Part shown: piece by piece, positions 51,001 to 54,000 of the stretch
Numbering within the stretch: position 1 is the first letter of the stretch
Layout: each line of letters begins with the position of its first letter
DNA from: an uncultured Bacilli bacterium
GTDB taxonomy: Bacteria > Bacillota_I > Bacilli_A > RF39 > UBA660
Direction: 5' to 3'
Assembly: GCA_934098375.1 (NCBI GenBank)
Contig: CAKOOC010000001.1
Location: 6,772-70,771, forward strand
Length of the DNA stretch: 64,000 nt
Position numbers: made by a program

Positions 51001-54000
51001 ATTAAAACAAGTAAGACCGCTTAATTTAGGTCAAGCTTCAAGGATAAGTGGAGTTAATCCTGCCGATTTATCAATTTTGGCGATTTATTTAAAGAAAGAG
51101 TACAATAAGAATGACTAGGGAAGAATTTTATCAGAAAGTTTTAGAAGAATTTAATATTGCACTTACAGAAGAACAAAAAAATGCATTTGAAACATATGCA
51201 AATTTTTTGCTTTCTTATAATACAAAAGTGAATATTACAGCCATAAAAACTAAAGAAGAAGTTTATTTAAAACATTTTTTTGATAGTCTAACAGTGTTAA
51301 AGTATGCAGATATGATTAATATAGAATCGGTATTAGATGTTGGTTCCGGCGGTGGTTTTCCTGGGATAGTTTTAAAAATATTATATCCATCTATAAGTTT
51401 TACTTTACTTGATAGTAATCATAAAAAGTGTGATTTTCAAAAAGCAGTTATAAAACTTTTAAATTTAAATAGAATTGAAAGTATAAATGAACGCGCAGAA
51501 AATTATTATAAAACTAATATTAAATTTGATATGGTAGTGGCAAGAGCAGTCGCACCTTTAAATGTTTTATCAGAATTGTGTATACCTTTTTTGAATAATA
51601 ATGGTCATTTTATTTCTATGAAAACAAATAATGAAAGTGAATTAAATTTAGCTACCGATGCGATTACAATTTTAGGTGGAAAAATAAATAATAAGTATGA
51701 ATTTGGACTACCTAATGAAGGCGGTAACAGAGTAATTTACGATATTATAAAGATTAAAGAAACCCCAGAAGGATATCCAAGGGTATATGATAAAATAATT
51801 AAAAAGCCATTGAAAATAAAAAGAAAATAAAGTATTATATTAATTAGAATAGGAAGGGTATGTGTGTATGGAGTCAAATGTCCAAAAGGTTAATATAGAT
51901 TTAATAATTCCTAATAGATTTCAACCACGTTTAAATTTTGAAGAGAAAGCATTACAAGAACTTGCAGCTTCGATAAAGGAACATGGGATAATTCAGCCTA
52001 TCGTTGTAAGAAGATTAGGTGATAAGTATGAGATTATTGCTGGTGAAAGAAGATATAAAGCCGCTACTATGGCTGGTCTTACAGAAGTACCAGTAATTAT
52101 TTCGAATCTAGATGATAAACAAAGTGCACTAGTTGCAGTGGCCGAAAACGTACAAAGAAAAAATTTAAGTTCTATTGAAGAAGCCCTTTCGTATAAAAAG
52201 ATAATTGATAAAAATAAAATAACGCAGGAAGAATTAGCCAAAAGAATGGGTGTTTCTCAATCAGCAGTGGCAAATAAATTGAGACTATTAAATTTGTCTA
52301 AGAAAGTGCAAAATGCTTTACTTACAGAAAAGATAAGTGAAAGACATGCTAGGAGTTTATTACAACTACCAACACATGAAAAACAAGATGAAGTATTAGA
52401 TGAAGTAATTGCTAAAAGAATGACAGTTAAACAATTAGATGAATATATTAAAAATTTAGGTGGGGTAGAAAGTCCGGAAACAAAAGAGATTAAACCAGTT
52501 ATTCCTGCTAATGAAGAAGTAGCAGTTAATGGTAACAACTTAATTCCTCCAGCAAATTCTTTAGATGATACAGTAAAAGCTGATGATAGTAATAATTTAG
52601 AAACGTTTAATATATTTGATAATGCTTTAAATGGGAAAACAACTAATATATTTGATGAACCTATAAACTTTGAAGAAAAGAAAAAGGAAGAACCATTAAC
52701 ACCAAGAAATGATTTACCTACAACTGAAACTTTAGATTTATTAGAACCGAAAGCGGAAAGTTTAGCAAATGTTTTAGATAATGATTTAAAAGGTACTTCA
52801 TTAAAAGAAGAAGAAAAAGTTGACAGTTTAGATATTGAAACAACGCAAGATAAGGAAATGGCGGAAAATAAATCTTCAGAAGTAAAGCCGCCAGAAAATA
52901 ATGATAATAAAACTTTATCAGAAAGTAATAATTCATTTTCAAAATTATTTAATATTTTTAAATCACCAACTGAAAGTGTTTCGTTGGAAGATGAACAAAC
53001 AAATATGAATACAGAATTAGGGGATACATTTAATCCTTTTACGAATTTGGAAAGTTCTACTACCGAAGATATTGAGCAAGAACTAAAGGAAGCCGCAGAA
53101 AATGCAAGAAAACAGGCGATTGCGGAAATGAAGGCTAAAGAAGAAAGAATTATTTCCGGTGATTTACAATCAGTTAAAAAAGCATATTTGAACTTAAAAA
53201 ATGAAATTCAAAAGGCTGGATTTAATATAGAAACAGAAGATTTTGATTTTGAAGATATGTATCAATTAATAATAAAAATTAAAAAACAAGGCGAATAAAC
53301 CTTGTTTTATTGTGGTTCAGAACCTTTTTTAAAGTAAAATATACTTGTTTTACCATTTTCCGTATTTTTTTGACCAGTAATAGGATTTAAAGGTACTCCA
53401 ACGATATTATCACTCATTTCGTACCAAGAGTTTTCTTTATCTTTTGTATAATCTTCGACAGTATCACACCAAATGTTTTTTATTTTTTTTGAATAACTGC
53501 TATTTACATTTTCATTCATATCGTTTCCGGCCCATACCATCATTAAGACATCAGGATTATAACCAACGATCCAGTAATCACTTTCAGTGGTACCACTTTT
53601 TAATGCATACTTTTTAGTAATTTTACTATTTAAATATATTACAGTTGGTGATAGATAATCTATAAAGTTAGAACTATAGGTGTTTGTCATCATTTCATTT
53701 ACTATAAAAACAGAATCTTTATTTAAAACTTCTTCGCTTTCATCTTTTCTTTGATATAAAATGTTACCATTAATGTCTTCTACTTTTTCAATAAAGTATA
53801 ATTTTTCATGAGTTCCATAGTTGGCAAGTGTTGTATAACTTTCGGCATAATCTAACATGTTTATTTCTTTGGCACCTAAGGCAAGAGAGGGAATAGGTTC
53901 GAGTTTTTCTTTTAGACCAGCTTCTTTCATGGTTGTAACTAGTTGTTCTTCACCGAGAAAAAGATGAGTTTTTACAGCGTATATGTTATCAGAATAAGCT

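Follow-up and report, generated by a model that had tools for sequence, protein, structure and literature searches.

A Noc orthologue with a long acidic linker and no N-terminal membrane-targeting helix in a family of uncultured gut Bacilli

Which clamp protein reads which site near a replication origin, and does Noc act there by membrane tethering when its membrane-targeting helix is missing? These questions are raised by a gene directly adjoining rsmG in a 64,000-nucleotide stretch of the genome of an uncultured Bacilli bacterium (assembly GCA_934098375.1, contig CAKOOC010000001.1, forward strand, positions 6,772 to 70,771; the whole stretch is called the window below, and positions given alone are positions in it). 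An earlier note, made from the sequence alone, had taken the product of this gene for a Noc-like paralogue of ParB with a long insertion, and had asked both questions. The source assembly comprises 1.14 Mb in 39 contigs (27.5% G+C, 91% complete). Here we find that the encoded protein, P0001, is the Noc orthologue of the organism and not its Spo0J, an assignment that we hold with near certainty. The long form recurs throughout a family of uncultured gut Bacilli. The corresponding features are collected in Table 1.

The highest-scoring NCBIfam model for P0001 was nucleoid_noc (TIGR04285), with 279.9 bits as against 224 bits for the Spo0J paralogue of the same genome. The curated cut-off of this model, 315 bits, is not reached because the insert splits the match into two stretches (model positions 1-209 and 188-255). 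Among proteins of solved structure, the closest sequence relatives were the Nocs of Geobacillus thermoleovorans and Bacillus subtilis (199-171 bits, with 199 bits for 7NG0/7NFU), ParB/Spo0J entries scoring 152 bits or less. The best fold match of the AlphaFold2 model was likewise a Noc (7NFU, E = 2e-21, 52% identity), and the DNA-binding domain of the model superposed on the complex of Noc with a Noc-binding site (NBS; 6Y93) at 1.3-1.5 Å.

Phylogenetic placement agreed with these searches. We ran a maximum likelihood analysis (quick search) on 83 N-terminal plus DNA-binding regions aligned over 195 columns, comprising 30 TIGR04285-type Nocs, of which 27 scored above the curated cut-off, their neighbouring ParBs, long forms related to P0001, and the ParBs of its family. 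The split between ParB and Noc received maximal support (Shimodaira-Hasegawa-like approximate likelihood ratio test, SH-aLRT = 100), and P0001 fell within the 60 rows of the Noc side and not with canonical Spo0J, the placement that the earlier note had named as a refutation. The 30 long forms emerged on that side as a single clade (support 95), and the second ParB of the genome grouped with the Spo0J proteins of the family.

The residues that set DNA specificity tell the same story. According to the published code, four positions (173/179/184/201 in Caulobacter numbering) read R-T-A-G in ParB and Q-K-K-R in Noc, with K or R at 179 or 184 in 91% of NBS-specific variants (Jalal et al. 2020, PMC7383237). 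P0001 carries Q131 (52258-52260), K137 (52276-52278), N142 (52291-52293) and R159 (52342-52344). This Q-K-N-R pattern is of Noc type under the code, and is the commonest one among the sampled TIGR04285-type Nocs (17 of 30). Among 60 relatives of P0001 the Q and the R are invariant and the K is nearly so. ParBs in general have R-x-x-G, and the paralogue has R-L-T-S. The motifs from which the Noc affinity had originally been recognised could all be located: IPNRFQPR (residues 14-21), SSIEEA (101-106), GVSQSAVANKLRLL (128-141) and ISERHARSLL (156-165). The motifs PNRFQPR, GERRYKA (52042-52062) and ENVQR, which follow the ParB-type patterns for cytidine triphosphate (CTP) binding (PxxQPR, GERRxRA and ENxQR), align with their counterparts in Noc and ParB. 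Judged by its sequence, P0001 is very probably an NBS-specific CTP clamp.

The search for soj/parA and a second parB that had been suggested found both. The soj (265 aa) and spo0J (298 aa) genes lie together 62 kb downstream of noc, after tilS-ftsH and outside the window (spo0J: G000:C1:121676-122572, equivalent to L008 7676-8572). The Spo0J paralogue has the ALGKGLEQLF peptide for interaction with ParA, R at position 173, Ser at 201, and an adjacent soj. P0001 has Q and R at 173 and 201, no peptide of the LGxGLxALF type and no adjacent parA. The earlier note had described the usual soj-spo0J pair as replaced by a convergent gene for a penicillin-binding protein (PBP). This is true of the locus, where the 3' neighbour of noc is a PBP-like open reading frame (ORF) on the minus strand (53307-55217), but not of the genome, which retains the pair elsewhere. 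Upstream, mnmE, mnmG and rsmG precede noc in this order. Because the complete order mnmG-rsmG-noc-soj-spo0J-mscS is intact in four sister genera carrying the same long-form Noc, the missing soj-spo0J beside noc is a local rearrangement at the level of the genus. From the specificity code, we infer that Noc reads NBS and that the Spo0J paralogue reads parS. In the published mutational scan, variants binding both parS and NBS mostly had T or S at position 201 (PMC7383237), where the paralogue has Ser; going by this residue, cross-reading of interleaved parS and NBS by the paralogue is conceivable.

The N-terminus of P0001 is short by any measure. The frame begins at GTG 51862 or ATG 51868 and ends at 53298, within an open frame of 481 aa. 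A GGAAGGG Shine-Dalgarno sequence (51852-51858) precedes the ATG, and an in-frame TAG (51850-51852) lies 18 nt 5' of it, so that a longer N-terminus is impossible without a frameshift. Only 14 residues stand ahead of the ParB box, and the alignment with G. thermoleovorans Noc (7NFU) starts at residue 4, which pairs with residue 27 of 7NFU. The natural N-terminus therefore corresponds approximately to residues 24-27 of that protein, helices α1 (membrane-targeting) and α2 being absent, and P0001 matches the engineered truncation NΔ26 of Noc. The suspected absence of a counterpart to the membrane helix is borne out by the upstream stop, the short stretch before the ParB box and the alignment start. 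The α1-holding pocket of G. thermoleovorans Noc (I65, Q66, I81, R86) was considered as evidence and set aside: it is conserved in P0001, but it is uninformative because its residues belong to motifs conserved in all ParBs.

In B. subtilis Noc, the first 10 residues form an amphipathic membrane-targeting helix that is required for function (PMC4331003). An unrelated amphipathic helix can substitute for it, and Adams et al., who found no protein partner of B. subtilis Noc, predicted an N-terminal helix in every homologue that they examined (PMC4331003). In apo-Noc the membrane helix is autoinhibited together with α2, and its release is thought to be driven by CTP (PMC8429893). Canonical Nocs of the same class as our organism begin with MFNIFS.., MNIFS.., MGLFDFLG.. 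and similar sequences. We also observed that an N-terminal extension is wholly missing from 7 of the 30 canonical-length Nocs of the class, as in MKETKIIPIERIVPNPYQPR. These seven (L117, L123, L124, L125, L126, L128 and L129; 253-282 aa) belong to two clades of the tree, and two of them score just under the TIGR04285 cut-off and the rest over it. Anchor-less Nocs are therefore not confined to the family of the window, and these proteins are at odds with the statement that every Noc homologue has the helix.

Between the DNA-binding domain and the Noc-type C-terminus, P0001 contains about 195 residues that have no equivalent in model Nocs, in agreement with the insert of roughly 200 residues in a protein of 476 aa that had been noticed originally. 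The AlphaFold2 model is confident at residues 1-200 and 399-472, and the isolated C-terminal 83 aa match TIGR04285 positions 188-255. Residues 201-395 are predicted to be disordered (predicted local distance difference test, pLDDT < 50) save for short helices at 250-255 and 356-362. The linker is rich in acidic and polar residues (E28 N26 L19 T18 K17 D16 S15 P14), and searches with residues ~199-395 returned no credible Pfam or NCBIfam match.

This architecture is not peculiar to one assembly. Proteins 97-99% identical to P0001 occur on independent contigs and in other genomes of the genus, and a sequence search retrieved more than 100 homologues at full length (400-481 aa). When species-representative genomes were scanned, 584 relatives came to light. 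The 80 of these that were retained all stem from assemblies of metagenomic or uncultured origin; Bacilli, Tenericutes, CAG:460, CAG:605, Ca. Coprovivens and Ca. Ventrenecus are the usual labels, and a few bins are labelled otherwise (e.g. Muribaculaceae). We extracted 84 distinct long-form proteins (327-629 aa), whose linkers span 85-385 residues and are uniformly acidic (median charge -0.14 per residue). They are likewise short-fronted, with about 14-20 residues before the ParB box (longer values reflect upstream ATGs). In all nine sampled genera of the family of the window, the Noc open frames measured 369-594 aa. Across the class-wide sample, Nocs over the TIGR04285 cut-off were 253-310 aa long with the exception of one 681-aa frame. 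An assembly or gene-fusion error had been named as a possible source of the insertion. Its conservation across a whole family of genomes shows that it is not an artefact.

The 681-aa exception (L127, G104:C11:113591-117361) belongs to another family of the class and scores over the TIGR04285 cut-off. It keeps an N-terminal helix (MALFNRKDKEE), has a normal C-terminal domain, and continues into an acidic tail of about 400 aa with SFLFEDEDDE...GFWNLFK at its end. In this protein, a long acidic leash terminating in a hydrophobic motif may have arisen a second time, alongside the N-terminal helix.

The distribution of the DNA sites is as unusual as the protein. The assembly contains eight perfect parS (TGTTTCACGTGAAACA) and four perfect NBS 16-mers (TATTTCCCGGGAAATA), all within 2.5 kb, the four NBS within 2.2 kb; no further copy of either with up to one mismatch was found in its 1.14 Mb. 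Three of the NBS alternate with parS in a spacer of 870 bp that lies downstream of gyrA and about 9 kb away from dnaA/oriC. The array lies 15.4 kb upstream of noc, very close to the 15 kb first estimated. The fourth NBS is 1.8 kb off the array and further from oriC. DnaA-box-like TGTGGATAA sequences stand directly beside several of the parS copies (35925-36410). Few and clustered sites are also the rule among relatives. In the genus, 21 of 23 genomes have 1-6 perfect NBS; in the cases checked, these lay 15-20 kb from noc and no more than a few kb from an array of 3-9 parS. Across the family, NBS are present in 38 of 41 genera (each represented at 90% completeness or more), the median being about three, and those among the matches listed fell together for the most part on one or two contigs. 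A single genome stood far above its relatives, with 23 perfect NBS in all, about 13 of them in a ~79-bp tandem array (G171:C1:89140-90102).

The NBS of B. subtilis reportedly number about 70, a count attributed to Wu and colleagues in 2009. They are scattered round the chromosome (PMC8429893, PMC4331003), with the terminus spared. Having only four clustered sites to load at, Noc of the window's genome would most likely load and spread over the origin-proximal centromere island rather than round the chromosome, and from the site distribution we consider it fairly likely that its action is confined to this island.

Across the family the linker cannot be aligned except for one short element. In most genera this element reads (I/M)PNKFFNFLEDE(A/S)xNMN, and in the genus of the window it consists of NSFSKLFNIFK, separated by eight residues from SLEDEQTNMNTE, after which comes FNPF. 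A strict hydrophobic core was present in 43 of the 84 linkers, as against 0.32 in composition-preserving shuffles, and many members repeat the motif two to three times. FNIF occurs nine times in the 336,000 residues of the genome's ORFs; two of the nine are in the P0001 linker, with a third NIF copy nearby, and the LEDExxNMN half was found solely in P0001 within the genome. The only linker helices of the AlphaFold2 model coincide with motif copies. Disorder and amphipathic-helix predictions, both advised by the earlier note, gave a disordered linker with an amphipathic peak: within the linker the hydrophobic moment reaches its maximum of 0.60 exactly at NSFSKLFNIFK, where five hydrophobic residues lie on one face and two Lys contribute to a charge of +2.

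Table 1. Positions in the window of the noc gene, its parts and the presumed binding sites
Feature	Position	Strand	Basis or remark
noc orthologue, long-linker form, 476 aa (P0001)	51868..53298	+	ORF, domain searches, tree, fold match
In-frame TAG and GGAAGGG ribosome-binding site, fixing the short N-terminus	51850..51858	+	Sequence reading
ParB N-terminal (CTP-binding) domain, residues 4-96	51877..52155	+	Pfam ParB_N, E 8e-33
Helix-turn-helix (HTH) DNA-binding domain, residues 98-197	52159..52458	+	Pfam HTH_ParB
Disordered linker of acidic character (net charge -26), residues ~199-395	52462..53052	+	pLDDT, composition, family searches
Long helix and Noc-type C-terminal (dimerisation) domain, residues 396-476	53053..53295	+	AlphaFold2 model, NCBIfam
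Linker motif NSFSKLFNIFK-SPTESV-SLEDEQTNMNTE...FNPF, residues 355-391	52930..53040	+	Family alignment, hydrophobic moment, AlphaFold2 helix 356-362
Two upstream copies of the hydrophobic motif, ETFNIFDNAL (AlphaFold2 helix 250-255) and KTTNIFDEP	52606..52659	+	Sequence, model
Three perfect NBS palindromes TATTTCCCGGGAAATA at 35993, 36212 and 36431, 219-bp spacing	35993..36446	.	Presumed P0001 loading sites
Fourth perfect NBS, inside a minus-strand ORF	34228..34243	.	Genome pattern scan
Eight perfect parS TGTTTCACGTGAAACA, presumed sites of the Spo0J paralogue	35901..36700	.	Genome pattern scan

In order to find echoes of the motif in other proteins, we ran a position-specific scoring matrix (PSSM) built from it against the 30 canonical Nocs, against ParBs and against 30 SepFs of Bacilli. 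In 12 of the 30 SepFs the best match lay at the extreme N-terminus, where 12% would be expected (binomial P ~8e-5, the relatives not being independent of each other). The matching N-termini include MKMSIKDRFFKFLNEDE, MALFKNIFKEDEEE and KDRFFKFLNED (12.6 bits). SepF's N-terminal amphipathic helix is a reversible membrane anchor (PMC9320952). Genes for SepF and for two DivIVA-domain proteins are present in the genome, and sepF and divIVA adjoin (G000:C3:69124-69990, equivalent to L141 988-1848). Its SepF starts with MALNLKKALFGEEDSNDDSINMEEE, in which a hydrophobic stretch is followed by a run of acidic residues and by NM, a loose echo of the linker motif of Noc. No MinD scored over the cut-off in the 91%-complete assembly, and the Min system was accordingly set aside as a partner of Noc. 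We also considered whether the linker motif is the lost N-terminal helix in a new position, but the PSSM matches were too weak to show homology, and the likeness of MFNIFS../MNIFS.. to LFNIF is only a lead.

How, then, might this Noc work? The explanation that we prefer, tentatively and at somewhat less than an even chance, is an origin-restricted, NBS-reading clamp whose linker motif ties the origin region to the membrane. Noc dimers would load at the three or four NBS near oriC, close as CTP clamps and slide across the centromere island beside the ParB clamps. Each dimer would bear two acidic leashes of about 195 residues, and the amphipathic motif, recurring two or three times in them, would take the place of the N-terminal membrane helix of model Nocs. 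Clustering on DNA would supply the avidity that keeps the region of the origin at the membrane or with a partner located there. The outcome would be anchoring of the origin, or a block of division while unsegregated origins are at midcell, and not nucleoid-wide occlusion. Whether this protein tethers DNA to the membrane at all had been asked from the start, and the conserved amphipathic motif is, by inference, a candidate answer. Direct membrane binding by the motif is the least certain step of the scheme, and on the sequence we would put it below an even chance. A bolder formulation, in which Noc has been repurposed from chromosome-wide occlusion to form one half of a two-clamp centromere, its linker motif tethering the origin to the membrane or divisome, strikes us as doubtful.

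Several observations weigh against tethering to the membrane by the motif. The long-form clade is known here from sequences and a predicted structure, and AlphaFold2 confidence at the motif helix is only about 50. The strong acidity of the linker (net -26 in P0001, with the negative family median given above) would be expected to work against contact with anionic membranes. In the majority of genera, a single Lys stands beside three acidic residues in the motif, which is therefore no classical cationic amphipathic helix; the family consensus PNKFFNFLEDE is net acidic. Its acidic half, LEDExxN(M/L)(N/D), is the most widely kept, even in members without the FFNF half, and the polar Asn inside FFNF is near-invariant, pointing to specific contacts. 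In only 8 of the 30 canonical Nocs did the PSSM have its best match within the N-terminal extension, the scores being weak or negative, and in ParBs it also picked the ParA-interaction peptide (14 of 18 best matches, weak scores). As for the restriction to the origin, the NBS count in the assembly covers copies with up to one mismatch, and extra NBS may be unassembled because the assembly is 91% complete and in 39 contigs.

The acidic consensus, the widely kept acidic half and the near-invariant Asn fit a protein-docking motif, and Noc could share the same origin-restricted loading while its linker contacts a protein instead of lipid. SepF, FtsA, DivIVA/GpsB, Soj, SMC, or the N-domain of Noc itself as an intramolecular regulator, are candidate partners. 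Conservation that is residue-specific over some 15 residues (FFNFLEDExxNMN), the net acidic motif and surroundings, and the PSSM matches to the ParA-stimulating peptide of ParBs all speak for docking, as does the presence of SepF and the two DivIVA-domain proteins in a genome where MinD was not found. However, B. subtilis Noc yielded no protein partner in the study of Adams et al. (PMC4331003), and the hydrophobic half is shaped like an in-plane membrane helix. A docking motif common to other proteins of the genome was also sought: three of the seven other ORFs with FNIF were examined, and none had the motif in a disordered tail, two being a lipoprotein and a peptidase-like enzyme with the match in acidic context and the third a small uncharacterised ORF. 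That the linker motif docks a protein seems to us rather unlikely, and we rate the reading of Noc built on it no higher. Noc might also have neither a membrane nor a partner effector and simply be a second sliding clamp on DNA among the ParB sites, which would limit the spread of ParB towards the DnaA boxes and oriC or modulate SMC loading, the linker serving as an entropic spacer or solubiliser. The strict interleaving of NBS with parS at a regular 219-bp spacing among DnaA-box-like sequences would suit such a role, as would the highly variable length (85-385 aa) and sequence of the linker. The seven extension-less Nocs of canonical length suggest that anchor-less Nocs may be viable generally, and Staphylococcus aureus Noc is reported to influence the initiation of replication (PMC5540599). 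Nevertheless, this leaves unexplained why the motif is conserved across dozens of genera and repeated two- to threefold in many members, and we judge it improbable. Finally, a gene model wrongly assembled or fused, or else a ParB of the canonical Spo0J type, could have been invoked for a score under the curated TIGR04285 cut-off, but the splitting of the model match accounts for that shortfall. The frame is uninterrupted, the same architecture recurs in hundreds of independent metagenome-assembled and other genomes, and phylogeny, specificity residues and synteny are of Noc type; independent near-identical copies, the relatives and the tree effectively rule this possibility out, leaving it a negligible probability.

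The current model of Noc rests on a CTP-released N-terminal amphipathic helix and on dozens of scattered NBS. Both features are missing in a whole family of small-genome gut Bacilli, hundreds of species among the genomes scanned, which still keeps an intact Noc clamp, perfect NBS and a conserved linker motif. If the motif binds the membrane, targeting is separable from the CTP-gated N-domain, and how or whether it is regulated becomes the question; should it bind a protein instead, Noc would turn out to have a partner. In both cases, two sister CTP clamps would share one stretch of DNA in the interleaved parS/NBS island, a natural system in which one could study how the segregation of origins is linked to division in very small cells that lack Min. 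Were the two-clamp centromere true, it would constitute a new system for origin anchoring and division timing, and the N-terminal CTP-gated helix would not be essential to the function of Noc.

Among known systems, RacA of B. subtilis sporulation is a further origin-anchoring protein. RicO of S. aureus (bioRxiv 10.64898/2026.03.06.710092) resembles the preferred explanation in combining site-specific DNA binding near the origin with an amphipathic helix that bridges the origin to the membrane. It belongs to an unrelated family, is not a ParB/CTP clamp and has its helix at the C-terminus, and for P0001 such anchoring is a proposal. The membrane anchor of SepF combines an amphipathic helix with an acidic run, comparable to KFFNFLEDE in the relatives and LFNIFK...LEDE in the window; the motif of P0001 lies inside a disordered linker and not at a terminus, and in many genera has fewer flanking basic residues; the likeness is one of pattern rather than of demonstrated homology. 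Spo0J/ParB, in the same genome and in Bacilli at large, shares with P0001 the fold and the CTP motifs and has its sites in the same 800-bp island, but differs in R..S/G at positions 173/201, in the ParA-interaction peptide, in having no insert, in its adjacent soj, and in falling on the other side of the tree. The closest likeness is to Noc itself (B. subtilis and G. thermoleovorans; TIGR04285; PDB 7NFU, 7NG0, 7OL9 and 6Y93), with which P0001 shares the CTP-binding domain, the HTH with Noc-type residues and the C-terminal domain; as in B. subtilis, its gene follows rsmG, and the perfect NBS of the genome are identical to the B. subtilis consensus. Full-text searches of the literature turned up neither a Noc that lacks the anchor and has a long linker nor parS/NBS arrays in which the two kinds of site interleave. 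Whereas model Nocs have α1 and α2 and NBS scattered round the chromosome, P0001 has neither helix, carries about 195 acidic disordered residues with a conserved motif, and is encoded in a genome whose NBS, some four in number, all adjoin parS in the vicinity of oriC. Its mode of action is probably not that of textbook Noc, and the long-linker form is a real and widespread variant within a known protein family, apparently not described before, rather than a new kind of system.

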